Of a stretch of DNA of 64,000 bases, positions 3,028 to 60,618 are shown one piece after another (the stretch's first letter is position 1; each line of letters begins with the position of its first letter). The notes under the pieces are model-generated. The model had not been told where the DNA came from, did not search any database, and worked only from the letters and a program-made list of their open reading frames with translations. A program made the position numbers and the translations under genes. The DNA comes from Cyanidioschyzon merolae (lineage: Eukaryota): NCBI GenBank assembly GCA_000091205.1, contig AP006484.2; one strand, given 5' to 3'.

Positions 3028-6000
3028 ATGGAGCCCGTTGAACACACAAACAGCAGCGAGGTATCCGCTGCCGCTAGAGCGACCCAAGATCACAACGACG
3101 AACGAGAGGGAGCACCAGTGAGCGGGGCGGTGGTTCCTGCGGAAGCTGATCCGCTATCCCATCTAGTGCAGGAACAGAGTGCCCTACAAGCGCTGCACAA
3201 ACGGGCGCCCCGAATCATGGACGACCCGGATTTCGAAGGGGAATCCCGTGACCCAGTGCTCCAGGTTGACAAAGATGACGAAGGTCCACGACCAGCAGCC
3301 GCTGAGCCTACAACGCTCCAGCGTGTCGCAACCACGTCGGACGAAAGCATACTGGGAAACGCTTCACCGGCCAGCGAGCGCGGACTTGTTTCAGACACAT
3401 TGCCACATGCAACAGATGCAGACGTGACCGATGAATGGGCTCGTCGCCGCAAACGTACGCGTTCGAGTCCAGAACTCGCCGAGGGTGATATCGAACTCCT
3501 GCGTGAAGCCGGTGTTGTGATTCCAGAGCGACAGTTGCATCCAGGAGGTCGTCGGTCTCGCCGGCGTCGACGACTTCGCCAGGCCGCAGACCTGGAGATG
3601 ACCTCTGAGAACGACGATGACGAAAACGACAAGATCGAGGCTTCCCCTGATACGACCTCCGTAGCACCGTTTGGCATGATTGGCGACAGAGACGAAGCCG
3701 ATAGAGCTGCAGGCGCTGTGGACGCTCAAAAGTTCACGTCTGTCGGAGAAAAGCAAGCGTCGTTGCCTGCTAGTCCTCATCAAGCAGCGAATGCCACGGT
3801 GGGTGCTTCAGGCCTGGGTGCCGGCATCGGCGGCACCGATGATCAGAATCTCGCAGATGAGGCGTCGATCGACCAAAACTCTGAAATAGAGGAAGAAGAA
3901 ATCGGCAGCGACGATGATGAGGATGATTTAGCCGACTTCATTGACTATGGTGATGGGGCAGCTGGGCAACGTCGCCGCCGCCTCGCCCGTGAACGAGCGA
4001 GAGCTGCTTTGCAAGCCTCACTCCGAGGCGGGCGCCTGTCCAGCGAACTGGATCCTTACGCTGCAGCACTGCTGCGAGAGCTCTTCGGTGATGCCGATTC
4101 ACTTGAGAACTACCGCGGAGAGCCGCTTCTCTATCACGATGATCCCGAGCAGATTCGCAAATGGCTCCAGAGAATCGGCGTCAATGATCCACGCGATATT
4201 GAGAACGTCTTGTCGCTGGAGTCGTGGGCAGTACCAGAGCCGTCGTCAGCGGAGGAGGATGCATCGACGGGTGCGGAAGCCTCCAAGAGCGCCGGACACG
4301 AGAGCCTCTCCGTCGAGCAGACAGAGCTGCTCGCGGAAATGTATGCAACGCCTCAGGATGATGCGATTCGTGCACTGGATTTGCCGGAGTACACCCAACT
4401 CTATCACTGCGGGCGGGATCAAGCGGGGAATCCACTCCCTCGCGAGCTCATGGACGAGAGCGATATTCGTTACGAGGCAGAGTGGATCGTCACCAACGGA
4501 CTCGTGGACCTGCTTCGGTCGAGTAGACAGGCGGCTCCAGAGTCATCGCTCGTGGATCAGGTCGCGCATTTGCTGCGCTTCCTGCATCTGGAGCACCTGG
4601 ACATCGCCTTTATCGCCATGTATCGACGAGATTACCTGGAACCCGATCTTCTGCCTCCGCTCGAGCGAGGCACTGGCGAGCAACAAGCTCCAGTGCTGGA
4701 GAGTCCGACACATTTCGTGGGCGACTGGACACGCCTCTGGCGAGTCCTCGACTGGGACCGATACTATTTCCAGTTCCTTCAGCAGAAGCGCCGCCTTATG
4801 GACGTTTATGAGGAACAGGGTGAAGAGGAGCTTTTGCAGCTGGCTACGGCAGCATTCCGCCGTGAGATGCTCCAGGATGTGGAAAAATACGCGCGACTGC
4901 GTCGGGAGCTAGCTCACGGGGACAAGAATGGATCGGCATCAGCGTCAGCAGGTCGTGAAGAGGCTGCAAGTCCCGAGTCGCTGCGTCAGGTGGCAGCAGA
5001 AACTCTGCTGGCGCCCAGCACCGACGCCTACCAGCGACAGGAGCACCGCACCGCAGCTGCAGCTGCGGCGGAAGCGGCAAACGGCAGCATCCACCCTGAA
5101 GTCGGCCTTGATTCCGAAGCTGCTGGTACCGTCTCCGACGACGCAATGGATCAGTTGCAGCAAGCAACCGCTGCAGCTGCTTTGCGACACGCGTCAGACG
5201 ACGAAGAGCACCGGGATGCGGCACCTGTGCACTCGACCGAGACCCTAACGCCAACAATTGGGAATGCCGAGGCCATGCAGCCGCGAGCACGCGCGAAGAA
5301 CAGCAACAGCAGTAGCAGCAACAGTCGTAGCGATTTGCAGCGTACCAACGCTGAGATAGCGACTTCAGCGGAACAACCGGGAACACTGCAGCCTCGACAG
5401 GTGCACCCGCAAGCCCCTGGTCGTCGCAGGGCTGGTCGCACTCCGTCGCGTCGTGATGCGCTTCATGTGGCGATATCCTGGGTTGTTGCACACCAGCTCG
5501 ATGTAGAGGCGCTCTATGGCATCAAGGCTGCCGATTTGGCCTCCAACGTGCTCTCGGGTGGCAGTCTCATCACCGAACCTGCTGATCATCCAAACAAGCC
5601 GTCGCTCGAAGAACTGCTTCGATCTACTGATGTTACCGAGAGCACTGCTGCCGTCGGTATCGAACGGTATCTGCGCTACGTTCGTCAGGTAGCTGGGGCG
5701 CTTTATGCGGCACACCCGCGCCTTCGGCACTTTACCCGGACGCGTCTGCGCGAAAAGGCGCACCTCACCGTGAAACCGAGTGCGCGTGCCCTCCAAGACC
5801 TCGATATACTGGATCCTTTGCGTCCGTACTGTTCAGTGGAAGCGCTACCGGTTGCAGCCCTGGACCCAGCAGAAATGGCTCGTTTCATTTACGCTGAACG
5901 CCTTGGCCTGGTGGAGCACATGGAATGCTCGCTAGCGGCGCCTGATGAAGCGGAGCTCGAGTCCATCCTGGAACGCGCGCTCCTCAGCGACAAGTTGTAC

Positions 6001-13950: not shown

Positions 13951-15600
13951 GGCAGGTGCCTGGAGGCACTGATCCTCGACACGGGAACTCGAAGCGAAGC
14001 ACGGGGGAACTGTTTTCCGTATTGTGGAAAGATCACCTTGTAGGCAGGTGCCTGGAGGCACTGATCCTCGACACGGGAACTCGAAGCGAAGCACGGGGAA
14101 ACTGTTTTCCGTATTGTGGAAAGATCACCTTATAGGCAGGTGCCTGGAGGCACTGATCCTCGACACGGGAACTCGAAGCGAAGCACGGGGGACCTATTTT
14201 CCGTATTGTGGAAAGATCACCTTGTAGGCAGGTGCCTGGAGGCACTGATCCACTACAGGGGAACTCGAAGCGAAGCACGGGGAAACTGTTTTCCGTATTG
14301 TGGAAAGATCACCTTGTAGGCAGGTGCCTGGAGGCACTGATCCTCGACACGGGAACTCGAAGCGAAGCACGGGGAAACTGTTTTCCGTATTGTGGAAAGA
14401 TCACCTTGTAGGCAGACTGGAGGCAATGATCCTCGACACGGGAACTCGAAGCGAAGCACGGGGAAACTGTTTTCCGTATTGTGGAAAGATCACCTTATAG
14501 GCAGGTGCCTGGAGGCACTGATCCTCGACACGGGAACTCGAAGCGAAGCACGGGGAAACTGTTTTCCGTATTGTGGAAAGATCACCTTGTAGGCAGGTGC
14601 CTGGAGGCACTGATCCTCGACACGGGAACTCGAAGCGAAGCACGGGGGAACTGTTTTCCGTATTGTGGAAAGATCACCTTGTAGGCAGGTGCCTGGAGGC
14701 ACTGATCCTCGACACGGGAACTCGAAGCGAAGCACGGGGAAACTGTTTTCCGTATTGTGGAAAGATCACCTTATAGGCAGGTGCCTGGAGGCACTGATCC
14801 TCGACACGGGAACTCGAAGCGAAGCACGGGGGACCTATTTTCCGTATTGTGGAAAGATCACCTTGTAGGCAGGTGCCTGGAGGCACTGATCCACTACAGG
14901 GGAACTCGAAGCGAAGCACGGGGAAACTGTTTTCCGTATTGTGGAAAGATCACCTTGTAGGCAGGTGCCTGGAGGCACTGATCCTCGACACGGGAACTCG
15001 AAGCGAAGCACGGGGGAACTGTTTTCCGTATTGTGGAAAGATCACCTTGTAGGCAGGTGCCTGGAGGCACTGATCCTCGACACGGGAACTCGAAGCGAAG
15101 CACGGGGAAACTGTTTTCCGTATTGTGGAAAGATCACCTTGTAGGCAGGTGCCTGGAGGCACTGATCCTCGACACGGGAACTCGAAGCGAAGCACGGGGA
15201 AACTGTTTTCCGTATTGTGGAAAGATCACCTTATAGGCAGGTGCCTGGAGGCACTGATCCTCGACAGGGGAACTCGAAGCGAAGCACGGGGGAACTGTTT
15301 TCCGTATTGTGGAAAGATCACCTTATAGGCAGGTGCCTGGAGGCACTGATCCTCGACACGGGAACTCGAAGCGAAGCACGAACGTGCAACAAGGTCGTTC
15401 TATCCTTATGGTAAGCGTTGCACGGGGGAACTGTTTTCCGTATTGTGGAAAGATCACCTTGTAGGCAGACTGGAGGCAATGATCCTCGACACGGGAACTC
15501 GAAGCGAGGCACGAACTTACAACAATTTTGTTTCCATCCTTATGGTAAGCGAAGCACAGGGAACTATTTTCCGTATTGTGGAAAGATCACCTGGTAGGCA
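13951..15600. repeat. Tandem satellite array of about 18 monomers of 92 bp. One 89-bp variant occurs; the distal monomers are irregular and carry about 45-bp insertions.
   Basis: Monomer: ggcaggtgcctggaggcactgatcctcgacacgggaactcgaagcgaagcacggggaaactgttttccgtattgtggaaagatcaccttgta. The phase is visible as the repeated 66-67 aa ORFs in the track at 14024, 14116, ..., 15217 (spacing 92, 92, 92, 92, 89, 92, ...). Monomers at 14024, 14116 and 14208 are identical to those at 14665, 14757 and 14849, which gives a 641-bp higher-order period. The array begins about 390 bp upstream of the NOG1 start codon. Confidence 0.95.
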
Positions 15601-16160
15601 GAAGGTTTCGTGAGCTAGACGAGTCTGCTAGGCTGGTGCTTCACTCTCTAGACAGTGGCAGGTGCTGTGGCGAGCTCTGAGCAGCTCGTCTGCAACGCAA
15701 TTCATTCTGGGACTAGGTGCAGTTAGGCTGAGTCTGGGCTTCGCACTGGTCGTGGTTGACTCCTAGCTTATCGATTCGTGCTGTCGCAGGCAGTCGGTCT
15801 GCCTGTACACTTTACATGCTCCCAGAATAGCTATGTACTCCGACTCCTTGTCGAATGGAGCAGGCATCGAGCCGAAACCCCGCCCCCCCACCAGTGGTGT
15901 GGCAAAGCCGTTCTGGCCCCGTGCTACGTACGCACTACCAGCACAGGCGCTACTGCGGGTGCTCATGGCAAGTACTCGGCGCACGATAGACCGTACGAAA
16001 CAACCAGTATATTCGAGAGGAACTAGGGGTCATGGAACCTGGAGGCCGGATGCTGCATGACGAACTTTTTTTCGAATGCTAATATCCATCCCACAGCCTA
16101 GGAACCATGGCCAATGTAAATGCTTTTTTCAGAGAGAAACACGCGCCCAATGGAGCGATC
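15560..16160. repeat. Dispersed repeat family A, copy 1, about 600 bp, directly following the satellite array
   Basis: Homologous over its whole length to 25801-26410. Examples: cgtctgcaacgcaattcattctgggactagg versus cgtctgcaacccagtttattctgggaatagg; tggcaaagccgttctggccccgtgc versus tagcaaagccgttctgtctccgtgc; aaccagtatattcgagagg versus aaccagtatatccgagcgg; atccatcccacagcctaggaaccatggccaatg versus atccatcccgctacgctggatccatggtccatgg. Confidence 0.85.
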
Positions 16161-19153: not shown

Positions 19154-22100
19154 AGGTAACGGTGGTAAACGTCCAGTGAAGCCGGAATGCGGCGGTTACC
19201 TCGTTGTGTGCAACTGCAGGCACCCAAGGCGACGTAAAGCTATTGAAGTGCATCGGCGGCGCCTGTGGTGCCGGCGCCCGGTGCGACGGCACCATGGATG
19301 CGCTGTCGGAGGTTTGTATGCTCGGGGTCACGGGGGATGCCCTGCTCTTTTCTCCAAAAGTATTGTGGATCGAGTAAAATGCCGGTGACTGGCCCGCAGC
19401 ACGTATGCAGCGCTTATACGGCTGCCAGGATAGAACTGCAACGAGTTCACTGACTCAACGAGGGCGAACACGCGCAAGTTTGCGTTATTTCATATCGTCA
19501 ACTGCACCAGAACTTGGGGGTTGGTTTTTCGGTCTCCTGTGTCGCGTCTCCAACTTTAAATACGCTGGTCTCTCGTTTCGCTCCGATTTCGTGAGCATCA
19601 GTCAGAGGATCGTGATAACAGGGCCAAATTCTCGTTCATAGGATTTCCGGTTGGCATAGACACGTGATAGGCGCAGGCGAAAGTTTCGATCGAATCTTCA
19701 TTGGCCATGCTCACCTATTTGTTTGCGGCATCGGCGTACGCTTTGCAGCGATCACACCCGACTATGGTCAGATGCTGCCTTGTCTCCAGCGTGCTTCCTC
19801 GTACGAGTACTGCCCTCCGGCGCTTGAACTGTTGCTGCATCGCTCTGTACACGCACTAGACGAGTACAGAAGACTCCCCGTCGATGCCCTCGACCGTTTT
19901 CGCGTCTGGTGCCGTACCCGAAGATCACGAGCTTCGTCAGTGGCGATGCCCCCGACGAGTACTCTGTATGCGTCATATGCGAGTGCGCACTGTTCCATGC
20001 CATTGAAGATTTGTGGATTGCGGTGTTCGCCATGGTGGTAGGGATTTGGAAGGAAAATGCAGGTTGGAGAACTTGCCGAGAACTATCGATCCGGTGGCGT
20101 TCTCTTCATGGAAACCTGTGAAGCTTTCCCCATTGGAAGCCGTCTCCGCTATGTGTAGAGTACGAATCCATGAACACTTTTCATGCAAACAGAAGACAGG
20201 GTAGCCTCTCTGGGAGCATATCCCCTGAATTGTATCGTGCTGCGGTTGAATCCGCCGATTCATCGACGGGCACACAGAGAGAAGCACCTGTCTTTCGACC
20301 CGCGTCGAGTATTTGACATGCGCTTGGGAAGAAGTCGTCAAGGAAGGTCGTCGAGATTCTCTCCTCATCGAAGCAGGGACGCGCATAGCTGTGCTCCTCG
20401 GTTACCTTGAAACAGAAAGATCGAGTTCTAGGAAACTGTATGAATTGAGCACGCGATATTTACGGAACGGAGAAGAGTCAAGGCTTGTTGTTCTGCATTG
20501 CGTTAAAATATCGGTTATTATAAGAGCCCTTGTACGAATCTGTCGCATGTCACTGTGATGATGGTGAGGTGACGAATTCTACTGGGACTTTGTCGAAGGG
20601 GCCGTCCCGGAGAAAACAACCGCCGAGAATCGTAAACCAAGGTATGCATCCAAGAACGCCAATTCCCGCACTTCGAAATTAGAGGCGCAATATCAACACA
20701 AGTTCGCAGAGAAAATCGACAGATAGAAACAGAACGAGCAGTTCAGTTCGCGATGGTAGTTCGACACCATTGTGGAGCGCAGCAGCGTATCGCGCTCGTT
20801 CGACTGTACCTGGACGAGTTCGGATAATGTGCAGTCGGGCACACGAACCAGCCCGGGCAGAACTTGGTCCAGGCTCACCTGGGATGCTGGAGTGTCCTGA
20901 GGCGCAACTGGGTATGCCCGTTTGCCGAAACGATTCATTGTCGTTCGTTGGCACTCGTTTAGAGAGACACCCAGCTGCTAGACATGTGTGCACCATGCGT
21001 CCTTGGTGCGTGCGAGCGACGAATATCCCAATGTCGTCGGATCCCGTGGATGACAACCACGCAGCATCGACTCGTTACTCGTTCGACGCACTAGTTGATG
21101 CCGCGGGCGTGCCGCCATCGCGTGCTATAGCGCGTCCTGCGCCAAAGGCGAATACCGCACCACGTGACTTGTCGGTCATGTTCTTTGCCACTTCATTGAT
21201 GAAGCCCGCAAATCTATGCATCTTGCCTCCATGCAACCGATACCGTTGGCGGCCCCAGCGAGGTCTCTCGGAACGCTGTCGAAAATCGTTCGCACGAGCC
21301 ATGTGGACGCTTCTGCTCTGTCCAGTGCTGGGCGCTACGGAATCGATGTTGGCACTGTCACGCCATTTGTTGGTATATACGCTGGCGTCCATAATGCTCG
21401 ACTACCCATAAACGCGAACAATGGAGAAATCAAGCCATATTACATATTCTGTCTGAGCATCAATTACCCTGTCATATGAAGGTTCTATCGAAAATTTCGA
21501 GAGGCATCTGCTCAGCTGGTAGCCCTGCGTCCGGATCGGCTACAGCAAGTCGTTTGACGAGGTGCATCGGGGCGAGAGCGGTGCCTCGCGAGACTTTGTC
21601 GCGTAAGGAGCTATGCGATATCTGTTGGCGTCCTGAATCTATCGATTAGCCGGAGACGAACTTGTTGGCTAGTGATCTATGCGCGTAAAAACCGCGTTTG
21701 CCGATAGTGACAATGCCGTACACTGGATAGAAGCTGGGAGCATGGGCTGGTACGAAGACCAGGTCCAGCCAAATTCCAGCTGTATGCTCCCTGTTTCTTG
21801 TTCAGTCATGGAACGCGACATTGCTAACGAGCAGGACAGACGAATTTGGTAAGGAGGAGCTTGGCAGAGAGACTCGATGAACGACGCGTCGTCGAGCAAT
21901 CCTAACCGTTCGGCGATTTGGGGCCGGCCTCACGCTTGACTCCCCGCTGGGCCTGAAGCCGTTGTCGCACGTGCTTGACTCCTCTTTACGGCCGGAGGTC
22001 TGCCCCTACTTCATCAACGATGCACAGACCTGCCAGTCTTCCCGAATCAAGACTCATCGAATGAGACGAACACCATCCAAACCTGTACTGACAAAAATTC

Positions 22101-24984: not shown

Positions 24985-25700
24985 CAGCCTGTCCGAGTAC
25001 ACTTCTAGCCTGAGAGAGGCTGCGTTACAAAGATAGATTGCCTCGGCTCCTCGGGTCTTGTTTCAGCACCGCTCATCTTCTGATATTCATGGCGGCGTTG
25101 AAGTCTCAGTTCACAAACTCGATGCGTTTCTTACCTCTGGTTGAACTCACCAATGCAAGGAGTCCTATAGCTCGTGCCATGTGTGCCCCTACAGCCTCGT
25201 CAGCGCCTCGCCGCGTAAACCCATTGCTCGCTTATCTCCTGTCTTGTTCTTCTTCTTCTTCTTCGTCGCTTGCGCTTCATCGCGTGACAGTCAGAGAGAA
25301 GGGGATTTTGTTCGTTCCTCCCGGGCAGCCGGCGATGGCGGCCCTCGAGGCTCCTCGGCTTCCTTGTCCACCAGTTTCGTTTTTAGTTTTGAAAACGAAC
25401 GCATTTTAAACGCATCTGCTATAAACCGCGAAGGAGTACTTGAATACACGAATCTGAAGGCCGGAACGCATTTGGGATCAAACATCATATTTTGCTCCGG
25501 CTTCAACGCAAATACAACTTGCACGGTAGAGCAGCGGGCTTGATGACGCCATGCTTTGCGCTTGTCGTGCATTGAGCACGTCACCGGCAACAGTGCACAT
25601 TCCGAATGCAACATCGCTAGTTTTCTGGCAAGTCAACGAGTAATCAGGATCGCGTTTCCCTTCAACAGCAACATGCGCGTCGTGTCTCATGCCCGACAGC
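24985..25700 (-). pseudogene. Deleted, degenerate second copy of the Fanzor/TnpB-like element. It keeps a C-terminal RuvC-III fragment with in-frame stops and an upstream leader homologue.
   Basis: Minus-strand translation of about 25060-25170 gives LALVSSTRGKKRIEFVN*DFNAAMNIRR*AVL. The intact copy reads LALVSTTNDGKKRMEFVNRDFNAAINIRRCAVL. The 3' flank at 24985-25040 matches 49830-49860 (tttttcgacccgcagcctgttactggtttc versus tttttcgaccggccacgcactactggttcc). The segment 25640-25700 matches 52540-52600 (cgtttcccttcaacagcaacatgcgcgtcgtgtctcat versus cgtttcccttcaacggcggcgcgcgcgtcgtgtctcat). Confidence 0.6.
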
Positions 25701-25800
25701 TATGGAGGTACGGATCTCGGCTGCGCTATAGAAAAAAGAACAGAAACGATCCACTCCGTGGCAACTAGATCAAAAGTTCTTTCGCCTCTACTATAAGCGT

Positions 25801-26410
25801 TGAAACGGGAACAGCTTTCCGTATTTTGCAAAGTTCACCTTCTCGGCGGAAAGTCCTGCAGGTCGGACAAGACTACTAGGCTAATACGCTGCACTCTACG
25901 GAGCGAAGGGTACTGTAGTGAGATCTGGGCAGCCCGTCTGCAACCCAGTTTATTCTGGGAATAGGGTCTGGTATGCTTCGTCTGGGCATCGTTTTGGTCG
26001 TAGTGCTCTTCTTGCATATCGCTTCGCGTTGTCGCGGGCAGCAAGTCTGTCTGCACAGCTTGCAAGCTCCCGGAATTACACTGAATCCCGATTCTGTGAC
26101 TAGTGCACCACACCTCGCGCAGACGCCATCAGTGGTATAGCAAAGCCGTTCTGTCTCCGTGCAGCATCCGCACAGGCGGTATAAGCGCTATTGTGAGTGC
26201 TCAGATCACGTTAGGTGCACAGTGGAACGTGCAAAATAACCAGTATATCCGAGCGGAAGTACGAATAATGGAACTTGGACTTGTTGGGCAGCCTGCTTGA
26301 CACTTTTTCGAACGCCAGCATCCATCCCGCTACGCTGGATCCATGGTCCATGGAAACGTTTTGGCAAAGAAAGAAATTCGCCCACCGGCGGCATTTGCCG
26401 TAGCTGGAGC
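25801..26410. repeat. Dispersed repeat family A, copy 2. Its first about 60 bp are one diverged monomer of the 92-bp satellite.
   Basis: Copy 2 reads acgggaacagctttccgtattttgcaaagttcacctt; the satellite monomer reads acgggggaactgttttccgtattgtggaaagatcacctt. The rest aligns to 15620-16160 as described for copy 1. Confidence 0.85.
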
Positions 26411-26594: not shown

Positions 26595-27692
26595 ATGTTC
26601 CAGGGCCACTTGAGAGCCTTGTTGCGATCAGTAGCGAAACCCAGATTGCTTGGAGAACTTGCGTCGAAATCAACTGCATCACGAGCACTTGGTCGACAGA
26701 GCACGTTTCGGAGTGCGTTCGGTTGCGTCGGCGCAAGCACCTGGCAGCGCGCAGCTCCTGCCTCCACAACAGCAGCGGCGTCGGCTTCGGCTGATGGCAC
26801 CGGCGGTGACCGAGAAGCTCGTGCCTGGGACTGGAAACCGAAGGCAGTACCACCAGCGATCGGGGAGGAGATGGTCAAGTTGCACCGACAAGCCCCGGAT
26901 AAGTGGAGTGCGGTGGCGCTCGCGAAGAAGTACGGATATGATGAGCAGTTTGTGCAGGCCACTTTAGAGTTGGCCGAACTGGAAGCAAGCGTTCGGGCGC
27001 AAGTCAGTGAAAAGGAATGGAACGACGTCTTTGAGCCATTAGCTCGCGTTGCGCAGGAGTTCGAGGCCGCTGCAGCCGAACGTGCTGGACCAGACTGCCT
27101 CGTGCTCGGCATACCAGCACCATGGGAAGTCTTTCCGAAAAAGGCTGTGCGAAGTCGGGCATCGCGTATGATCTTCTACCGCGTTCGACGCGACGAAAAC
27201 GTTGAGACGGCACAAGCTCGTGCCGTTCGAGCCCATCTTGGTGCACCGGACGAAAGCGGCATCGCTGATAAGGCGCTGCCCGCTCCACACGCGAAGGATG
27301 CCGTCGCTGCCTCTGAGGCCTCGGACGCCGGTGGCCGCAGCACGTCATGGCCATCGCAGCCGTCAGTGCGATACGAAGCGAGCGCTGGGGCAGCGACTGT
27401 CCCGAAACCGCGGGTTCCTTTCATTTTCGTGGAGCGCGCGACAAGTCCTGTGTCTGCCAAGACCGGAAAGTTGCAATCCCAGTTGCGTGTCGTGGTGCGT
27501 GATACCGATGGTACCGTGCGCGAACCTCGTCCCGAAGAGAGAAACTTTGCGTTAGCGGCGTTCGGGTATGGAGCATCGGCGGATGACGATCCTCGGACGC
27601 CGTTGCACCCACGGCATCCTGGTGCGCCGAAGACGCCGCCTCCGCCTCCGCCTCCGCAGTCAACTGTAAGCCAGGAGTCGAATGCCGCATGA
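26595..27692 (+). CDS. Hypothetical protein (365 aa). The N-terminus is basic and hydroxylated, like an organellar presequence; the C-terminus is Pro-rich.
   Basis: It is the longest ORF in an otherwise unannotated interval, with no recognisable domain. A 219-aa ORF overlaps it on the minus strand, so the coding strand is not certain. Confidence 0.3.
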   Translation: MFQGHLRALLRSVAKPRLLGELASKSTASRALGRQSTFRSAFGCVGASTWQRAAPASTTAAASASADGTGGDREARAWDWKPKAVPPAIGEEMVKLHRQAPDKWSAVALAKKYGYDEQFVQATLELAELEASVRAQVSEKEWNDVFEPLARVAQEFEAAAAERAGPDCLVLGIPAPWEVFPKKAVRSRASRMIFYRVRRDENVETAQARAVRAHLGAPDESGIADKALPAPHAKDAVAASEASDAGGRSTSWPSQPSVRYEASAGAATVPKPRVPFIFVERATSPVSAKTGKLQSQLRVVVRDTDGTVREPRPEERNFALAAFGYGASADDDPRTPLHPRHPGAPKTPPPPPPPQSTVSQESNAA

Positions 27693-37209: not shown

Positions 37210-37685
37210 TCCGTACGCCCATATCATTGTACTTGGCCTATAGAAACTATGCATCTCCATAAAAGTCTGCATCCCAATCGCGAGACAGGAGCAGAGCATG
37301 CGCTTTGTACGCCCGTATCATTGTACTTGGCCTATAGAAACTATGCATCTCGATAAAAGTCTGCATCCCAATCGCGAGACAGGAGCAGAGCATGCGCTTT
37401 GTACGCCCGTATCATTGTACTTGGCCTATAGAAACTATGCATCTCGATAAAAGTCTGCATCCCAATCGCGAGACAGGAGCAGAGCATGCGCTTTGTACGC
37501 CCGTATCATTGTACTTGGCCTATAGAAACTATGCATCTCGATAAAAGTCTGCATCCCAATCGCGAGACAGGAGCAGAGCATGCGCTTTGTACGCCCGTAT
37601 CATTGTACTTGGCCTATAGAAACTATGCATCTCCATAAAAGTCTGCATCACAATCGCGAGACAGGAGCAGAGCAAACACTTCTGT
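37210..37685. repeat. Tandem array of 5 units of 94 bp
   Basis: Unit: gtacgcccgtatcattgtacttggcctatagaaactatgcatctcgataaaagtctgcatcccaatcgcgagacaggagcagagcatgcgcttt. Unit starts are at 37213, 37307, 37401, 37495 and 37589. There is no sequence similarity to the 92-bp satellite. The array lies about 330 bp upstream of the SAHH start codon. Confidence 0.95.
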
Positions 37686-38018: not shown

Positions 38019-39563
38019 ATGCAAGAGGGGAGTGTTACGCAAACGCTGGAGAACAAAAAAGCAATAGACGGAACGGCAAGCACGCTGAATCCTGTTGTGG
38101 CTTCCGGTGACTACCGCATCGCGGACCTGAAGTTAGCCTCCTGGGGTCGAGCCGACATCTCGCTCTCTGAATATGAAATGCCTGGGTTAATGGAGCTTCG
38201 GCGTGAGTACGCTCCGCAGCAACCACTGCGGGGCTTGCGCGTGGCCGGCTCCCTACACATGACAGTACAAACGGCTGTGTTGATCGAGACGTTACGCGCG
38301 CTGGGTGCGGAACTCCGTTGGTGTTCCTGCAACATTTTTAGTACTCAAGATCATGCTGCTGCAGCTGTTGTGGCGGCAGGTACTGCGCACGTCTTCGCTT
38401 GGAAAGGGGAATCCTTAGACGAGTACTGGGAGTGCACGGATCGAGCGCTCACGTGGGCCGACCAAGAGGGTCCCGATCTCATCGTTGACGACGGTGGCGA
38501 TATGACGCTGCTTATTCACGAGGGTTTCAAGGCAGAGAAGGAGTACTCGAGCACTGGAAAGTTGCCGGATCCGGAATCCACGACGAATGCAGAGTTCAAG
38601 TGCGTTTTGCGTACTATTCGCGAATCAATCCAGCGTGATCCGACGCGTTTCCAGCGAATCGCGAATCGAGTCATTGGTGTCTCTGAGGAGACGACAACCG
38701 GTGTGAAACGTCTCGTGCGAATGGCACAAGAAGGCACGCTCCTTTTCCCAGCGATCAATGTGAACGACTCAGTCACCAAATCCAAGTTCGATAACATCTA
38801 CGGCTGTCGCCACTCGCTCATAGATGGCATCGCCCGTGCAACGGACGTCATGCTTGCAGGCAAAGTATGCGTCGTCTGCGGGTTCGGCGACGTAGGCAAG
38901 GGCTGTGCAGAGGCACTGCGCGGCGCCGGAGCGCGGGTATTCATCACAGAAGTCGATCCGATCTGCGCCTTGCAGGCATGTATGCAAGGGTACACGGTGA
39001 CAACCCTGGAAGATGTTCTCGACATTGCAGATGTGGTGGTAACTGCCACCGGCAACCGTGACATCGTGATGAAGCACCACATGGAGCGGATGGCGTATGC
39101 TCGGCGACCAGGAGGCGACCAGCCGCCGTCGGTGCCGATCATCTGCAACATCGGGCATTTCGATAACGAAATCGACTGGTCTGGACTCGTGTCGGATCCG
39201 AGCATTGAACGAGTCACCATCAAACCGCAGGTCGACCGTTTCATCTGGCCGCATGGTGGCTCTGTCATCATCCTCGCGGAGGCTCGACTCGTGAACCTGG
39301 GCTGCGCCACAGGCCATCCATCGTTCGTGATGTCGTGCTCGTTTGCGAACCAGACAATGGCCCAGATTGAACTTGCTGCGAATCGGAACACGGGCAAGTA
39401 CCAGAACTCGGTGTACGTACTACCGAAACATCTGGACGAGAAGGTTGCTCGGCTCCATTTGGCAAAACTTGGGGCGAAGCTTACCAAGCTCACACCAGAG
39501 CAGGCTGAGTATATTGGCGTGGATAGCGACGGGCCGTACAAATCAGCGGCATATCGCTACTGA
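38019..39563 (+). CDS. SAHH: Adenosylhomocysteinase (S-adenosyl-L-homocysteine hydrolase), plant/bacterial-type with the approximately 40-aa insertion
   Basis: [24 protein letters not shown]...[31 protein letters not shown]...[20 protein letters not shown]...[14 protein letters not shown]. This is the canonical AHCY sequence end to end, with the NAD-binding GxGxxG and the C-terminal YRY. Confidence 0.95.
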
Positions 39564-48392: not shown

Positions 48393-49724
48393 ATGAAGCA
48401 GACTGAGCCCATGGAAACTGAGACGCAGTCAGAAACGCCTACAGCACCAAGTTCACGTGAGTCCGTTTCTGAGCAGAGCGGGGCGGTGTCGGCCGAGTCA
48501 CGGAAGGTGTTGCCTCGGATCGCAAGTGCGGGCAATGAGCTCTATCGCGCAGCGGCGCCTGGTGTGCCATCCGCGGTGACTGCTTCGTATTCTGACTTTA
48601 TTGCACAACAGCAGCATTATCAGCAGCAACAGAGAAGTTTAAGCGGCAGTGGTGGCAGCGGTCTTCGTCATAGCTTTTCGTGGGGTTCGTTCGTAGCGGC
48701 ACCACCGTTCGCCGTCGGGTATGGAAGCGGTATCGGAGGCAGCGTCCCTAACCTGAGCTCTGGGGCTGCCCCGTTGGGTGCCGCAGAGATTCTCGCACAA
48801 AACGCATACCTCCACTCGGAACTAAACCGGGCGCAGTCGGAAATACAGGCACTACGGAATCGTATTTACGAGCTGGAGATGCACCTGGGGGTTGCCAGCT
48901 GTGGCGTCCGTTCCCCGACTGAAAGAGCATCAACACCTCCAGCTCCGGCGAGCGCTGGTCAGGGCAAGGCGCCAGGCAGCAGCACTGCGGTCGCTTTGGG
49001 CTCTGGGCCAGTGCTGACTGCGCCGCCGCCCTTGCACGTAGCAACTGCAGTTCCGTTTGGAGGATCAGCTGCGATACCGGCTTCTGGTGTTGGCGCGCTG
49101 TACTCTAACAATCGAGTGATGCCCTGCATGTCAATGCCGCATAGCTCGAGTCCACTGAATTTGCCAGCCTGGCGACCAGATCGGTTTTCGCCGTCTCCAC
49201 CACCCGCCCAGTTTGGCAGCGGCCTCAGCACCAGCGCTACTACTGCATCTGGGCGCGCGGCATCTGTGCCAAACCAACCGTTTTCCTCTGCTGGACCTGG
49301 TAGTAGTCATGCGCGGCCGGGGCTCGCCGCAAAGAGCATGCTCGCCCGACACGATTCTCTAGGTTCCATCAGCAAAGACAGCCATAACAGCCACGCGGAT
49401 GAATACGGAACTGGGGGTTACAGCAGCAGCAGTGGAAGCAGTCTTCGTATTGGAGAACGTAGACGATCTCAATCATCCTCGAAACGACGTGGAAGAGCCT
49501 CATCAGTGGGGTCGGCACCGGAGACCGGAACCCCGCAGCCACGGTACTGGACTCAGGAGGAACACCAACGTTTCCTGGAAGCTCTGGAAAAATTCGGAAC
49601 CCGGAACGTGAGAGCGATCAGCGAGTATGTTGGTACTCGAAACGCAACGCAGGTTCGCACCCATGCACAGAAGTACTTCTTGCGGCTCACTAGAGAGGCA
49701 GAGAGGAAAACCTCGCGACCATGA
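48393..49724 (+). CDS. MYB-like transcription factor (single SANT/MYB repeat, SHAQKYF class) with a long Ser/Ala/Gly-rich N-terminal region
   Basis: The C-terminus has RYWTQEEHQRFLEALEKFGTRNVRAISEYVGTRNATQVRTHAQKYFLRL, which is a canonical SHAQKYF-type MYB repeat. Confidence 0.7.
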   Translation: MKQTEPMETETQSETPTAPSSRESVSEQSGAVSAESRKVLPRIASAGNELYRAAAPGVPSAVTASYSDFIAQQQHYQQQQRSLSGSGGSGLRHSFSWGSFVAAPPFAVGYGSGIGGSVPNLSSGAAPLGAAEILAQNAYLHSELNRAQSEIQALRNRIYELEMHLGVASCGVRSPTERASTPPAPASAGQGKAPGSSTAVALGSGPVLTAPPPLHVATAVPFGGSAAIPASGVGALYSNNRVMPCMSMPHSSSPLNLPAWRPDRFSPSPPPAQFGSGLSTSATTASGRAASVPNQPFSSAGPGSSHARPGLAAKSMLARHDSLGSISKDSHNSHADEYGTGGYSSSSGSSLRIGERRRSQSSSKRRGRASSVGSAPETGTPQPRYWTQEEHQRFLEALEKFGTRNVRAISEYVGTRNATQVRTHAQKYFLRLTREAERKTSRP

Positions 49725-49918
49725 CACCACCGCCTTTCGAAAGTCGAACGACGTCGCCGACGGTATAGCGTAGTGGCGGCAAACGGGCCTTAGACAAATC
49801 GTCTCCAACTGATGTGCAGACGCCTCCCCGTCTTTTTCGACCGGCCACGCACTACTGGTTCCCACTTTTTCTCATATAGTTCGATTTTGAGGGGTTGTCC
49901 TACAAAGGACCTTGTTGT

Positions 49919-50791
49919 CTACTCTGGAGGTCTTTTCTCCAGCACCGCACATCTCCTTATATTGATAGCGGCGTTAAAGTCTCTGTTAACAAATTCCATA
50001 CGTTTCTTGCCATCATTGGTTGTACTTACTAGTGCAAGTAGTCCTCGAACTTTTGCCATCCTTTCCATTTGCTCGTCTGTCAGCGGTCCGTACTTTGCGA
50101 TTTCCTCAGGGCTCCACTGGCACTTTTCCATCTCGACCCTCTGAAGTCTACACCCCAGTTCATGGTGCGTATACGATGTTCGGAACTCATCTACGGATAT
50201 TGTAACGAAACGTCGTGCACACTCTTTGTACACCCTCGTCGTTGGAGAAGACGTATTCTCTTTCTTGGGCGCCCAGCGCCCTGCCCCATACGCTACTACG
50301 AGCCTCTGACTCTCATCCTCCTTCAAGGCGACCAACTGATTGAAAAAGTTGGCAAACGCCCGCTGTTTCCCGCCGTATAGATTCATTCGCAAACGAGCCC
50401 ACCGGGGCTTGGTATCCTCCTCCCACAGCGCATCCCAATGAGCAACACGAATTTCCATGAATTTCCGAAAAGCTTCAAAGTCCGCTCCTCGGCTCGTCAC
50501 CTCGCTCAAAGCTCCCAGGTGATCCTTCATTCCTGAATTCCAAGTCTCGATTTTCTTCCTCGCATTCATCATTCCCAATTCTCGATAGTATCTCGCTCTC
50601 GAGAACCCCAAAAGACGCATGTCTTTCTGACGCAAGTTACCGTCAATGCCATCTTCCGCACGCTTTGGTGCTGCGATGGTTATGATATTCGTGTTCCCAG
50701 GGTCCGCGCCAACGACAAAGTCGTTATCCTGCACTTTCTGTGTCCGAGGGCCCGCCTTCTTGTTTTCTACATGCTTCGCCGCGCCAACCAT
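49919..50791 (-). CDS. RuvC-nuclease segment of a TnpB/Fanzor-like protein (C-terminal 290 aa)
   Basis: RuvC-I: VVGADPGNTNIITIAAP (compare GIDxG). The pre-zinc-finger motif is SVDEFRTSYTHHELGC (compare VDPRYTSQTC in TnpB). RuvC-III: FVNRDFNAAINIRR (compare DxNAAxNI). A CTGGAG-7nt-CTCCAG hairpin at 49924-49942 overlaps the last codons. The stop codon is TAG at 49919-49921. Confidence 0.75.
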   Translation of the reverse strand: MVGAAKHVENKKAGPRTQKVQDNDFVVGADPGNTNIITIAAPKRAEDGIDGNLRQKDMRLLGFSRARYYRELGMMNARKKIETWNSGMKDHLGALSEVTSRGADFEAFRKFMEIRVAHWDALWEEDTKPRWARLRMNLYGGKQRAFANFFNQLVALKEDESQRLVVAYGAGRWAPKKENTSSPTTRVYKECARRFVTISVDEFRTSYTHHELGCRLQRVEMEKCQWSPEEIAKYGPLTDEQMERMAKVRGLLALVSTTNDGKKRMEFVNRDFNAAINIRRCAVLEKRPPE

Positions 50792-51160
50792 AAAGGCGTT
50801 ATCCTACACCTCCTGCATCACAGGATCCGCCTCCTTCTCGTGTTCACCCTTGGTCACGTTAACGACAAAGTCGTTATCTTGCACTATCTGCTTCTCAGAA
50901 CGCGCCTTGTTGTTTTCTTCATGCTCAGACAGGCCAGCGACAAGGTTGTCATCCTCCACCTCCTGCATCGCAGGACCAGCCTCCTCCTTTTCTTCATCCT
51001 TCGTCACGTCAACGACAAGGTCGTTATCCGCACCTCCTGCGTCGCAGGATCCTCCTCTTTGTTTTCTTCATCCTTCGCCACGTCAAGGACGAGGTCATTA
51101 TCCTCCACTTCCTATGTCGCAGGACCAGCCTCCTCCTTTTCTTCATCCTTTGTCACGGGC
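50700..51160 (-). repeat. Internal tandem repeat inside the Fanzor-like gene: about 6 units of 75-78 bp encoding an acidic 25-26 aa module ([25 protein letters not shown]...)
   Basis: Repeats are visible on both strands. The plus-strand ORFs 50646-51248 and 50771-51205 show reiterated DKVVILHLL and TTKSLSCT strings. The minus-strand frames give [13 protein letters not shown](M/T)QEVEDDNLV units. Confidence 0.85.
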
Positions 51161-53832
51161 GCAGCCGAGGGCGCAACTGGCCGATCTCCCTTCAACGGCC
51201 GATAGTGTATACACAAGGCTACTCCATCGGTTTCAATCATCCCGCTGAACAACTTCTGCTTGCTCACTCTCAGAGGTTTGAAATCGAAGATGCTCTTCCT
51301 GTACGTCTCCCGGTTTTTACCAGAGAATTCCTCTGTGCTAACATTGGACTCTGGACTGATCTCCTTCATGATGCCATGAAGGACGCCGGAGTTGATAGTC
51401 ACAAAATGTGACTCGATCTTGCACATTGGAACCACGTTGAAGCGCTTACCCATTAGGACAGACTTCCGTCTCTCCCACTCTTCATTTGTCTCTTCACTCA
51501 GCTTCATCTCCGCTTCGCGTTCGAGTTCACGGTCCAAAAACACAAGATACCGCAGGGAGAGGCGATAGTATTTTTCCTTATCTATTTTCAACTCTGATAC
51601 CTTTTCTGTTGGATTCACCAGCCCCAAGACTGCACGGTGCTCTTGTATAGCCGCACGGGTTACAGAAGCTTCATTCGTGCTCCCTTTTGACGTCTACTTG
51701 TCGACAAATTCGACCTCACCTTGATGCTTGCGATCTCTCGTGATGCCATTGATCATCGCCCATATTCCTTTGCGAGAGATACCTGGGTAGAGTGCAACCG
51801 CGGCGCGTACTATGAAACATTCGAGGATCACTGTCAAATGGTTCTTCAGATTCGTGAGGTACTTCATCGCTCCGTATGTGTAAATACCCTGGCCACCCTT
51901 GTATCGATTACCCTCGAAGCGGAATTCCGCGAAGTTTTCGTGGAGGCCGTCCACTAGCACATTTTCCTTCCGCGCTTCCGCTGTACCAAAGATGAGGTAA
52001 CGAAAAAAGGTCTTTTCGAAAAACTCGTCCGGAATCTCGACCGTTTCCATGTGCGTCACGTCGCGATACATCTCCCTCGCTAAATGCATCAGTCCTGACG
52101 ACGCCTCTATAATACTCTTGGAGTCCGAATCGACACGGTTTCTGATAGCGTCTCGCAAATTTTCTCTGCAGGGATCCTTGACATGTCCAAGAAGAGAGGT
52201 ATTCACAACCATCTCGTTGTACAGTCGTCTTTCTTGCAGCCTTCGACGCAGGACCTTCCCCTTTTGGGTCTTCTTCTCTTCCTTTTCTCCTGGACTCGGC
52301 ACTGTTTTTTGTTTTTTCTGGCAGCCTGCGACCCTGGGCCTCCAGGATCGTCGACTTCCTTTTCATAACTTTTCTTTTCTAGTTTTTTTAAATGAACCCT
52401 CTGTGAACGCTTCTGTTATATACTGCGAAAAATCAATCGAATATTTTCACTTGAGGGTTGAAACACAATCGAACTAAAAACTATACTTGCCTATGAAATT
52501 AACGAAAATACAACTTTTACACGAGAGCTAGACGCTAAAGATCAAGATCACGTTTCCCTTCAACGGCGGCGCGCGCGTCGTGTCTCATATCTGCCCCAAC
52601 TCTCAGGTACGCTCATCGAGCGCGATGCATGCGCTGCGCGAGACGCCTCATCGATCGATGAAGGACACGTGTCCGACACCCCGCCTTGGCATATGCGTGT
52701 TTGTATCGCGCTGCAGCTGAAGTAAAGTATCGTAGATTGGAAACTCACGTAGAGTAATCTCTTGCTATAGGCTCTGTCGCTGGTGCCGAAGCTACTGCCC
52801 ATCGCAGTACCGCCTTGACATACATGGAGATGTAGGGGCCTGGCACGATACCCCTCGACGCTTCTATCAAAAGCGTAGCGTTCTCTGCGGCTTACGCTTG
52901 TCTGGATAAGGTACGCATCACTCTAGCCTTGAAGAGTTTCGTTAGTTTTATTGATCGTAAACAAACAAGGGACGGTAGGATTCCTGAACACGGACATACG
53001 TTTAATTCCTATGCTTGTTATGCATGCCGCACGGACGCTGGAATAAGGACCTGACCTGAATTTTGCTTCTATCCCGCGTCATGGGCTAGAACCGATGATA
53101 GTTCAAGTCATTTCCATGCTATCGTCGTTGTCCAAGTTATGATGCCCGCTACGTCCCCCGGATCCGGTGGTCTCGGCAGAGGCATACCACATATGTGGCG
53201 TCCATATCTGCCACGACGTTTGAGCCTTGCATCTCGCCTGGCACGATCGAGGCATCCGGCAATAGCACATATTGTGTTCTGATCTACTCTATAAGATTGG
53301 TTTCAAGAGCCTAACCCGTACATCGAGCCCGGAAGCGACATAGCCAACAACAAATGCCTTTGAAAAGAAAAACTTTTTCGCCGGCCGTGCAGAGTAGTGG
53401 CGAGTGACCCGCCCCAGACATGACGTGTCCAACTGACGTGCAGACGCTTCCAAAATAACGTAGCGCCGGAGGAAATTCCTTTACACCTCCTCTACGTTAT
53501 TCGTCAGTGAGCTGCTGCGACGTGTCTTCACGATAATTGTGATCTCTGAACTCAGCATCGCGGAGCGCTGACCGACCAGTACTGACGAGATTGTTGCTCG
53601 GAAAACAGCGAGTTTTGCCTAGTTTCTGAGAAATACTTTCAGCGCTTGTGCGGGTTGTGCTCAAAGTTGGACAGTCCAGGGGAGATTGAGGTCGGCATCA
53701 GCACCAATGGACGGGCGATCACACGTGCAGCAACGCAAAAGATGTTTTCGACTGGATATGCACACCTACGCGAAAGACTCTAGCCGGTGACGTGATCGAC
53801 AGCTTTGCACCGGAGAAAATCTAACCGAGAAA

Positions 53833-57831: not shown

Positions 57832-60618
57832 ATGTTTCGTGCTCGCTCTCTGGTACGTGCCCTGGGAGTAGCTGTTTGTCTATTGTTGGCGGCGACGTTT
57901 TCCGTGTCGGTTGTGGCTGCGTTGTCGCCTGTGAGTACGGTTAGCTGGACCTGGATAGGTGGAGAGACGGGTATCGATAATCCTGGTAATTATGGAACGC
58001 TGAACCAGACTTCAGCAGATAGTGTTCCAGGAGGCCGTTACTATTCTGCAGCCTGGGTCGGAAGTCCAAGCTTGGTATACTTGTTTTGCGGGGTTGGGTA
58101 TGGAAACCCATTTCCGAGCTACTTTAATGATCTATGGACCTTCAACTTGACCTCACATGAATGGACGTGGATTGGAGGCTCCTTAGACATCAACAATGTA
58201 GGAGTATATGGCACAGTCGGCACAGGCAGCCCAAATAGTATACCCGGCGGCCGTTACGGAAGTGCGTATTGGCAGACGGACGAGCAGCATTTCTGGTTGT
58301 TTGGTGGCTACGGCTTTGATGTGAACGGTAATGTGGGAGACCTGAACGACATGTGGCGGTACGATACTGAAACGGGAATCTGGACGTGGTTCAGTGGGAA
58401 TGATACTATTAACGCCGATCCAGTCTATGGACCGAAGGATATCTACAGTCAAATTTACAACCCCGGAGGCCGAGATAGCGCGGCATTCTGGCTGGGCGCG
58501 GATGGTCTTTTTTGGTTGTTTGGTGGTGAGAGAAATAATGGGCTGGATTATTTGTCAGATCTCTGGTCATTCAACCCTGTTACATTCGAATGGGCATACA
58601 GAGGCGGATCACAACTTGCTAACCAGCCTGGTAACTATAGTGCACCTGGCGTGGCGAGCAACTCAAATGCTCCAGGTGCGCGCGGCTTCTCGCATACGTG
58701 GACAGATTTTGAAGGAAATCTCTGGTTGTTCGGTGGCTATGGCTACGGAAACAGCACAGCACTAGGGCAAGGGGACTTGAATGATCTCTGGGTCTACAAT
58801 ATAAGTCAATCCGTATGGATTTTTATCGCAGGGAATACAACCATCTATGTACCTGGATCATATGGAAGTCTCGGTGATTTCTCGCCAACCAGTTACCCTG
58901 GTGCAAGAGACTCAGGCGTGAGTTTCGTAGATTCATTTGGTAATCTGCAACTGTTTGGCGGTGAAATATTCAACACTACGAATGGCAACTACGTCCTTTT
59001 GAACGATCTGTGGGTGTTCAATATCAAAATTGGTCAATGGGCGTGGATCAACGGAAGTTCAGCGGTTGATTCTTTAGCAGTATATGGAGTTTTGAACGAG
59101 ACCGGCTCGAGTGTTGTACCAGGCGGACGTGAAGGACCAGCCTTATGGAACACCAGTGGAACAGATCCGGTCATGTTTGGCGGATTTGGATACTCAAACA
59201 CTAGCGGACCTGGCTATCTCAATGATGTTTTCGCACTGAGTGAAACGTTCTTTACGCCTACCTCTACGCCTACGCCAACATCAACGCCAACTCCGACATC
59301 GACCGCAACATCCTCGGTAACCGCTTCATCTACGGCTACATCTACGATAACAGCAACCGTGACCTCGACGTTCACACTGACGCCAACGCCTACATCTACT
59401 CCCGTGTGCACCAATGAGATCTGCGGTTCCCCGGGACAGTACACGAACCAGGACGCTTGCGAGCAAGTCGGATGCTGCTTCAATCCCGAGACGAACGCGT
59501 GCACCCTGAAGAGCGTCTCAGCGGCCTGCAGCGCTGTTCCAGTGACGCAGCGCGTCCCCTGCGGCTGGAGCTACATCTACCCCGACGAGTGCACTGCGAT
59601 TCCGGGATGCTGCTGGCAGCCCACAGCGAACGGCATCCTCGCGCCCTGGTGCTACTACGACATCGACCATGCACCGCAGGCTTCTGTAGCGCTGCAGGAG
59701 GTGCAGGCACCGGTGCCCGTCTGCCCATCACCGGGAGCGCATCGCCAGCCGTGCGGCAACGCGGGTATCAACCAGTTTACGTGCTATGCCCAGGGCTGCT
59801 GCTACGACTCGCAGGCGCAGAACCAGTGGGTGCAGAACGGCAAGCAGCAGAGCGACTTTGCGTCGAACCCGTACTGCTTCCAGCCCGAGAAGACGTGCGC
59901 TGTGGGCGAGTTTGAGCGCCAGCCGTGCACGAACGCGGTGAATCAGAACCAGCAGCTGAACAATAACATCAACAATAACCAGTTTGTGCGTCTGCTGAAC
60001 ACGCTTCTGTACGGGGAGCAGCACGGGACGCAGCGCACGAGCTACTCGCCGCAGCAGTGTCTGGAGGCTGGTTGCTGCCTGGGGCTCGGTAACGAGTGCT
60101 TCCAGCCGATGACCGAGTACGTGTGCCAGACCTACGGGTACGTCTCGAACTCGCTGAGCGGCACGACCGGCAACGCGTCGAACTCGAGCTATATTGCTTG
60201 CGGCCCTGAGTGCTGCAACGCCGAGACGCAGAACTGTACGTACAACCCCTTCAGCAACAACAACAACCAGCAGCAGCAGCAGCAATTGCAACAACAGCAG
60301 CAACAACAGGTGCTGCTGCCGTCGTTCTGTGTGTGCAAGGACCCTACGAAGCAGTGCGGGACGTACCTGATCCCTTCGGATAACCTTGTGAACAAGGTGC
60401 GTTGCTGCCGCGCTGACGAGGAGTGCATCAACAACCAGTGTGTGGTGATTAGTCCAACACCGACTCCGAGTCCCGTGGCTGTGACAGCGACACCCTCTGC
60501 GACGGTGTCTGCGGCGGTGTCTGCGACGGTGTCTACGACAGCTTCTGCGGCAGTGTCTGCGACGATGTCTGCGAGAGCGTCAGCATCGGTTTCGGGTTCA
60601 GCTTCAGTGTCTGCTTGA
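57832..60618 (+). CDS. Secreted multidomain protein: signal peptide, Kelch/galactose-oxidase-type beta-propeller, Thr/Pro-rich mucin-like linker, four trefoil(P-domain)-like six-cysteine modules, poly-Q/N tract, and an Ala/Ser/Val-rich tail
   Basis: The N-terminus is MFRARSLVRALGVAVCLLLAATFSVSVVAA. Kelch blades carry reiterated W-x-W-I/F-GG and GG-x(n)-NDLW-x-(Y/F) motifs (WTWIGGE, WLFGGYG, NDMWRYD, WLFGGE, NDLWVYN, ...). The linker is TPTSTPTPTSTPTPTSTATSS.... One cysteine module, C-x8-R-x2-CG-x8-C-x4-GCCW-x10-WCY (CSAVPVTQRVPCGWSYIYPDECTAIPGCCWQPTANGILAPWCYY), fits the trefoil consensus. Three further similar modules follow. Confidence 0.65.
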   Translation: MFRARSLVRALGVAVCLLLAATFSVSVVAALSPVSTVSWTWIGGETGIDNPGNYGTLNQTSADSVPGGRYYSAAWVGSPSLVYLFCGVGYGNPFPSYFNDLWTFNLTSHEWTWIGGSLDINNVGVYGTVGTGSPNSIPGGRYGSAYWQTDEQHFWLFGGYGFDVNGNVGDLNDMWRYDTETGIWTWFSGNDTINADPVYGPKDIYSQIYNPGGRDSAAFWLGADGLFWLFGGERNNGLDYLSDLWSFNPVTFEWAYRGGSQLANQPGNYSAPGVASNSNAPGARGFSHTWTDFEGNLWLFGGYGYGNSTALGQGDLNDLWVYNISQSVWIFIAGNTTIYVPGSYGSLGDFSPTSYPGARDSGVSFVDSFGNLQLFGGEIFNTTNGNYVLLNDLWVFNIKIGQWAWINGSSAVDSLAVYGVLNETGSSVVPGGREGPALWNTSGTDPVMFGGFGYSNTSGPGYLNDVFALSETFFTPTSTPTPTSTPTPTSTATSSVTASSTATSTITATVTSTFTLTPTPTSTPVCTNEICGSPGQYTNQDACEQVGCCFNPETNACTLKSVSAACSAVPVTQRVPCGWSYIYPDECTAIPGCCWQPTANGILAPWCYYDIDHAPQASVALQEVQAPVPVCPSPGAHRQPCGNAGINQFTCYAQGCCYDSQAQNQWVQNGKQQSDFASNPYCFQPEKTCAVGEFERQPCTNAVNQNQQLNNNINNNQFVRLLNTLLYGEQHGTQRTSYSPQQCLEAGCCLGLGNECFQPMTEYVCQTYGYVSNSLSGTTGNASNSSYIACGPECCNAETQNCTYNPFSNNNNQQQQQQLQQQQQQQVLLPSFCVCKDPTKQCGTYLIPSDNLVNKVRCCRADEECINNQCVVISPTPTPSPVAVTATPSATVSAAVSATVSTTASAAVSATMSARASASVSGSASVSA

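Follow-up and report, generated by a model that had tools for sequence, protein, structure and literature searches.

How a strongly acidic tandem repeat came to lie inside a nuclease gene, just upstream of its RuvC-I motif, and whether that repeat is what disabled the gene, are the questions raised by a locus in Cyanidioschyzon merolae. The DNA analyzed here (the window) is a 64,000-nucleotide stretch of C. merolae 10D chromosome 2 (CMB locus tag), in which the standard-code translations of three ORFs match C. merolae 10D proteins exactly (an adenosylhomocysteinase, CMB153C, and a MYB-related protein). One Fanzor1 family described in C. merolae is CMe-1A, with ~150 copies that are ~80% identical to a 3169-bp consensus encoding a 734-aa protein; it was published as old and mostly degenerate (Bao & Jurka 2013, Mob DNA 4:12; PMC3627910). 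When the consensus, taken from the supplement of that paper, was aligned to the window, its positions 648-3169 corresponded to window positions 52624-49731 at 86% identity (2169 of 2524 aligned positions), the sole large gap being 374 extra nt at the array, or five additional units. The protein of the window copy is colinear with the 734-aa CMe-1 consensus, RuvC-I, -II, and -III included. The element and its main parts are as follows.

49731..52624, minus strand: CMe-1A Fanzor1 transposon copy, a pseudogene (blastn and global alignment to the published 3169-bp consensus)
52625..53451, minus strand: probable subfamily-specific 5′ region of the element (direct repeat and identity to sequence upstream of paralogs)
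51157..52366, minus strand: N-terminal (REC/WED) coding part, with three lesions (frame translation and alignment to the consensus protein)
50708..51156, minus strand: six-unit 75-bp (25-codon) acidic tandem array (Tandem Repeats Finder [TRF], unit parsing, and repaired translation)
50693..50710, minus strand: RuvC-I, GADPGN, with the catalytic Asp; aligns with IDPN of SpuFz1
50174..50194, minus strand: RuvC-II, VDEFRTS, with the catalytic Glu; aligns with LDEYKTS of SpuFz1
49967..49987, minus strand: RuvC-III, NRDFNAA, with the catalytic Asp; aligns with NRDMLST of SpuFz1

Upstream of consensus position 648, the window copy departs from the published element. The 861 nt in question (53460-52600) are 78-86% identical to the sequence upstream of related copies (L032/L038, L040, L018, and L009), and a 96-nt direct repeat (53356-53451) is 71% identical to the element 3′ terminus (49732-49827), from which it is spaced by 3624 nt, so that the pair brackets the Fanzor copy. 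Judged from these alignments, the subfamily seems to have its own 5′ region, which opens with a duplicate of the 3′ terminus; the published CMe-1A consensus differs here, its 5′ region matching TE-N2_CMe. The 3′ end of the element (49731) lies 7 nt past the TGA of a convergent MYB-related (SHAQKYF-class) gene (48393-49724); any 3′ UTR of that gene would have to enter the element.

Two further Fanzor1 remnants were observed in the window. An apparent internally deleted CMe-1A copy (25052-26366, minus strand) lies just upstream of CMB153C (26595-27692); its 5′ part (26366-25308) corresponds to consensus positions 4-969, and its C-terminal coding remnant (25177-25052) has 65% amino acid identity to residues 700-742 of P0164, a related protein. 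The other is a short remnant of a second, more divergent Fanzor1-like gene (21072-21434, minus strand), recognized by amino acid identity: 36-39% over ~125 residues to P0188 and P0189, two relatives that lack the array, and 31-35% to CMe-1 proteins.

The first-pass annotation had called the gene TnpB-like, a call that holds and can be made more specific. Pfam searches with the two halves of the window and four paralogs returned nothing above threshold (best, Cas12f1-like_TNB at a subthreshold E=0.076); since Pfam was uninformative, membership was drawn from the literature consensus, a profile search of the PDB, and a fold search. An hmmsearch with a profile built from relatives recovered SpuFz1 (8GKH) at E=4.1e-5, with DPxN and NRD aligned, and GtFz1 at E=0.12. 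In Foldseek, the top seven matches to an AlphaFold2 (AF2) model of P0164 were all Fanzor1 proteins (SpuFz, GtFz, and PpFz), with E values of 3.6e-12 to 2.4e-8 and a probability of 1.00. The window copy retains all three split RuvC motifs in canonical order. In SpuFz1, the metal ligands are D383, which coordinates Mg, E541, and D606 (PMC10432273); from residue spacing, the Glu of VDEFRTS would correspond to E541, and the Asp of NRDFNAA probably to D606. The region between RuvC-II and RuvC-III is less well preserved. Most Cys ligands of the zinc ribbon (CxxC...CxxC) located there appear unconserved in CMe-1, where the TNB region reads TSYTHHELGC...EKCQ...GLLALVSTT versus SSVCPRCS...GLLGCTNPNC in SpuFz1, and the AF2 model has low confidence over this part. 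On the evidence of sequence and modeled fold, the gene is a copy of eukaryotic Fanzor1, family CMe-1A.

The array falls where it had been placed at first reading, between the N-terminal region and RuvC-I in the nuclease ORF, with the REC/WED part upstream and GADPGN after it; GCG GAC CCT GGG, encoding ADPG of RuvC-I, directly follows the last unit. The repeat had been described as six or seven units of 75-78 bp; its existence is confirmed, while its dimensions resolve to six units, five of 75 bp and one of 74.

51156-51082, minus strand: unit 1, 75 bp
51081-51008, minus strand: unit 2, 74 nt
51007-50933, minus strand: unit 3, 75 bp
50932-50858, minus strand: unit 4, 75 bp
50857-50783, minus strand: unit 5, 75 bp
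50782-50708, minus strand: unit 6, 75 bp

TRF reported a period of 75 at 50710-51157 (6.0 copies, 71% matches, score 399) and, in a second call on the array, a period of 150 (3.0 copies, 77% matches, score 514). In the pairwise unit matrix, mean identity is ~0.78 for units two apart versus ~0.72 between neighbors. A strict 150-bp higher-order repeat was considered and not adopted, being weakly supported, with the 150 period scoring slightly above 75 in TRF. The array is far beyond chance, and its 75-bp unit recurs in >70 related loci. Pairwise identity among the six units is 64-84%, which indicates that the array is old. Once repaired, it translates to 150 aa with a net charge of -29, and the acidity of the units declines toward the RuvC side. 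We regarded the plus-strand ORFs that cross the array (50646-51248 and 50771-51205) as a side effect of the purine-rich sense strand.

Tandem repeats occur elsewhere in the window as well. A 92-bp array (13951-15380, and 15277-15602) has 15.6 copies at 96% identity; each unit includes a stretch with homology to the CMe-1A / TE-N2_CMe 5′ region (positions 523-563), and the array adjoins an element 5′ fragment (15568-16131, consensus positions 4-554). A 94-bp repeat (37213-37674; 4.9 copies, 98% identity) lies ~350 bp upstream of the adenosylhomocysteinase gene (38019-39563). A 12/36-bp repeat (60496-60578) within a 928-aa ORF (57832-60618) is apparently another short coding repeat.

An acidic repeat insert in such a protein had been considered unusual, and a comparison of unit number across paralogs had been proposed. 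That comparison removes the impression of an oddity, as the normal linker varies in length throughout the family and the insert is one state of this polymorphism. The published CMe-1A consensus contains exactly one unit, VAKHEEKKEADPATQEVQENDFVVG, flanked by the WED strand ...GVAMCVHYRRLKADRPVPPSASP and by ADPGNTNIITIA. We took as related loci the best 80 of 487 tblastn matches, a choice biased toward intact copies, excised the array between conserved anchors, and grouped near-identical flanks, which left 48 distinct loci. Among these 48 loci from the best 80 of 487 matches, unit number varies from 1 to 6: one unit is the commonest state (16 loci), followed by two and three (14 each), four (1), five (1), and six (2), so that the window copy stands at the top of the range. 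The 25-codon unit is in frame in all 47 of the other distinct loci (same best 80 of 487), and related proteins derived from metagenomes likewise carry 1-6 units, in frame every time. Relatives at 31-43% identity (P0188-P0191) have a short linker without repeats.

Several comparisons bear on the age of these changes. The best identity between units of one array ranges from 68% to 96% across arrays, pointing to duplications of many ages. L032 and L038, two contigs that carry an orthologous locus, align colinearly for 7.4 kb (97-99% identity), with 3 kb of flank on each side included, and differ by one 75-bp unit (2 versus 3 units); unit turnover therefore went on after insertion. Two near-identical proteins, P0169 and P0172, have 3 and 5 units, respectively, and in another pair of loci (L012 and L042) that are 99.8% identical, one internal unit has nevertheless been overwritten. 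At the window locus itself, the six units are invariant in five assemblies.

The units had also been read as once translated into a disordered acidic linker, and here the paralogs, with 1-6 units in frame, and structural modeling agree. In the AF2 model of P0164 (752 aa, 4 units), residues 373-472 have a pLDDT of 23-28 and contain zero DSSP elements, while structure is modeled for the RuvC core and the flanking WED strands, in a prediction of modest quality overall (mean pLDDT of 59). Measured against the consensus, dN/dS is 0.80 in the terminal unit, 0.45 in the left flank (200 codons upstream of the array), and 0.21 in the RuvC half. By these ratios, the terminal unit is weakly constrained and close to neutral. 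The simplest reading of the model is that the array would form a predicted disordered, acidic loop between two domains, with weakly constrained length.

We then asked whether the repeat accounts for the damage to the gene. Relative to the consensus, the window copy has seven disabling lesions, namely three 1-nt deletions and four TAG stops, and an uninterrupted ORF from start to natural stop is absent from it. Six of the seven, counting three inside the array and three outside it, recur unchanged in four independently assembled JGI metagenome contigs that carry the same locus at 99.2-99.5% identity to the window (L001-L004; samples 3300009503, 3300005573, 3300027863, and 3300002182).

~52358-52364, minus strand: 1-nt deletion in the N-terminal part, beside the start codon; in the window strain (10D) only
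~52317, minus strand: 1-nt deletion in an A-run in the N-terminal part (alignment to consensus)
51696-51694, minus strand: TAG for AAG (K) in the N-terminal part (alignment to consensus)
51114-51112, minus strand: in-frame TAG in array unit 1, where other units have Q (CAG); identical in L001-L004
51029..51030, minus strand: 1-nt deletion in array unit 2, GTGCAGGAT to GTGCGGAT, shifting the frame; the 449-nt array is also present in L001-L004
50806-50804, minus strand: in-frame TAG in array unit 5, where other units have E or Q (GAG/CAG); identical in L001-L004
49921-49919, minus strand: premature TAG for TTG (Leu) (alignment to consensus)

Past the last of these stops, 42 codons (49918-49793) are still readable before the natural stop at 49792-49790. 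The A-run near 52317 is 1 nt shorter than in the consensus (GCCAGAAAAAACAAAAAACAG versus GCCGGAAAAAAACGAAAAACAG), which throws the first ~22 codons, with a KKRK-like basic stretch among them, out of frame; the same short run occurs in an unrelated copy (L085, ~2470-2500), and this deletion may be a subfamily feature as opposed to an independent lesion.

It had been stated that three of four lesions fall inside the array, a pattern read as consistent with slippage and mutation in a repeat. Three do lie in the array, out of a total that is seven and not four when counted against the consensus. The rest of the argument is unsupported: two of the three array lesions are substitutions, the deletion lies outside any homopolymer run, and three of seven lesions in 17% of the coding length is no significant excess (binomial p=0.11). 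Across the family the trend is the reverse. Among 48 loci from the best 80 of 487 matches, disabling lesions occur at 1.0 per kb in arrays versus 3.1 per kb in flanks, with array frameshifts scored by net length only; in these loci, 8 array lesions were observed versus 23 expected from both flanks (p=3e-4) or 16.5 expected from the right flank alone (p=0.02). Because lesion density is lower in arrays than beside them, the repeats are not lesion hotspots in the CMe-1A family. The few small indels within arrays are mostly in frame (-12, -3, and +3). Lesion depletion together with in-frame indels is a hint of some selection on frame, or of turnover that would keep arrays younger than their flanks; array turnover, frame selection, or bias in the choice of loci may each underlie the depletion. 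A fully intact multi-unit gene was not found among the sequences retrieved. The copy that encodes P0164 (L085, 4 units) is interrupted by a single frameshift and a single premature stop, and a 5-unit copy (L006) has one stop.

Several explanations other than gradual decay of a copy with a variable linker can be weighed against these data. Repeats are error prone in assembly, and the array or its lesions might reflect a collapsed or miscalled repeat. The C. merolae 10D genome is, however, a finished Sanger assembly, and the units are just 64-84% identical to each other and hence easy to assemble. More directly, the four metagenome contigs differ from the window at ~0.6% of sites and yet keep the same 449-bp array, both array TAGs, and the array deletion. 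Since lesions common to four independent assemblies are real, an artifact, which the first-pass annotation had left as an alternative, is excluded for practical purposes. We give equally negligible weight to the idea that TAG encodes an amino acid (e.g., Gln) or is read through, which would leave the ORF intact. All four internal stops are indeed TAG, two of them align with Q or E of other units, and TAG does not terminate any of the nine long window ORFs whose stop codon was checked. However, the replaced codons are K (AAG), Q, E or Q, and L (TTG), which no single reassignment fits; three 1-nt deletions would persist regardless; the family consensus ORF itself terminates with TAG; and the standard-code ORFs of the window match NCBI proteins exactly. 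The coding sequence is rich in GAG, AAG, and CAG, and TAG is the outcome of 151 of its 301 one-step routes to a stop, so half of random stops are expected to be TAG and four of four is unremarkable. We therefore rejected reassignment and read-through on the mixed replaced codons, the three deletions, and the TAG stop of the consensus. That the repeat instead has a noncoding role in DNA or RNA, as a regulatory or satellite element or as part of a guide RNA, is very improbable. Other tandem arrays derived from the CMe-1A family do occur nearby, e.g., the 92-bp array described above. Against such a role, the unit is exactly 25 codons and keeps frame at every other distinct locus (47 of 47, from the best 80 of 487), the array is mid-ORF and ~1.4 kb from the 3′ end, and a search of 49600-53600 for inverted repeats or terminator-like features found none. 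To our knowledge, Fanzor systems characterized so far encode their omega RNA near the element end, which also counts against this reading.

A more substantial alternative, although one that we still regard as unlikely, is that the acidic array is a selected, adaptive module of Cyanidiales Fanzor1 placed before RuvC-I, whose unit number tunes the nuclease in active copies. It might take the form of an auto-inhibitory loop that mimics nucleic acid and would hinder the binding of DNA or omega RNA, or of a docking site for a host protein. A lesion density in arrays about one-third of that in flanks (48 loci from the best 80 of 487 matches), the in-frame character of small array indels, and the presence of 3-5 units in the longest, least damaged ORFs (P0164/L085, L006, and L014) all speak for such a module. 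There are parallels in other Fanzors too, as GtFz1 is acidic at the corresponding position (QEANDEEDSKQ...) and the FRI domain of PpFz1 is a lineage-specific functional insertion that binds cyclophilin (PMC11423790). If true, this reading would account for the preserved frame of the arrays and for their lower load of disabling lesions relative to the remainder of the gene, and it would mark the WED-RuvC junction as a place where Fanzor editors naturally accept insertions of <=150 aa or use them for regulation. Yet the RuvC-adjacent unit evolves at a dN/dS close to neutral (0.80), unit number ranges freely from 1 to 6 with a single unit being both the consensus and the commonest state (48 loci from the best 80 of 487 matches), relatives at 31-43% identity do without the array, and no structure is predicted within it. 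The lesion depletion, moreover, is also explicable by array turnover and locus-choice bias.

Instead, we consider it highly probable that the block is a 75-bp coding minisatellite, i.e., a tolerated linker, disordered, that expands and contracts in a decaying CMe-1A copy. The 75-bp unit encodes the family's normal linker, which runs from the final WED beta-strand (...GVAMCVHYRRLK) to the initial RuvC strand, the one that bears the catalytic Asp (FVVG|ADPGN). Tandem duplication and loss of whole units, presumably as 75-bp units underwent unequal exchange or slipped during replication, would have produced copies with 1 to 6 units, and the orthologous alleles that are one unit apart show that such turnover continued after insertion. 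Since the unit is a multiple of three and lies between two folded domains, expansion would yield a longer, strongly acidic, disordered loop that the protein may tolerate, and we infer that it is functionally near-neutral. Slippage or unequal exchange would thus account for changes in unit number but not for the lesions in the array, which are probably products of ordinary neutral decay and not caused by the repeat. The window copy has long been nonfunctional, with six lesions fixed across strains and one added in 10D. Lesions shared between strains, together with one specific to 10D, indicate that the pseudogene predates strain divergence and that its decay is ongoing.

The value of these observations is modest. 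They document that the WED-to-RuvC-I junction of a Fanzor1 protein can carry 25 to 150 residues of predicted disordered acidic sequence. As the least damaged copies have 3-5 units, the junction may be a permissive site for insertions or fusions in compact Fanzor editors, provided that multi-unit proteins are active. The description of CMe-1A is also refined, since its consensus hides a length polymorphism, and the array offers a variable-number marker for the genealogy of copies and for strain differences in Cyanidiales.

How far does this arrangement resemble what is already known? The published CMe-1A consensus has a single 25-aa linker unit where the window copy has six, and the main text of Bao & Jurka makes no mention of a tandem array (PMC3627910). 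The Fanzor structural and functional literature that we searched yielded no description of tandem or disordered repeats in Fanzor proteins. SpuFz1, GtFz1, and PpFz1 (PDB 8GKH and 9CEU-9CF1; PMC10432273 and PMC11423790) share the fold of the CMe-1 model by Foldseek and have a WED-to-RuvC linker of ~40-50 residues in the same position as that of CMe-1, acidic in GtFz1. Insertions in these proteins are single folded domains or single linkers (e.g., the PpFz1 FRI domain), whereas CMe-1 has its linker multiplied into a tandem array of variable length, with predicted disorder. The TNB zinc-ribbon cysteines of CMe-1 also appear degenerate compared to those of characterized Fanzor1 proteins.

Coding minisatellites as such have precedents in the tandem repeats of archaeal Borgs (PMC9879509) and in the length-variable intrinsically disordered regions of yeast (bioRxiv 10.1101/339663). 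The CMe-1A array has in common with them a unit whose length is a multiple of three, a head-to-tail arrangement, copy-number variation between paralogs and alleles, a disordered product of biased composition, and weak sequence constraint. It differs in its host, which is a transposon-encoded family of putative RNA-guided nucleases, and in age, as many CMe-1A arrays are old (units 64-84% identical) while the Borg and yeast examples are near perfect and recent. The element has been published before, as has its Fanzor1 nature; expansion of its linker into a tandem array is a previously undescribed detail of that family and not a new system.
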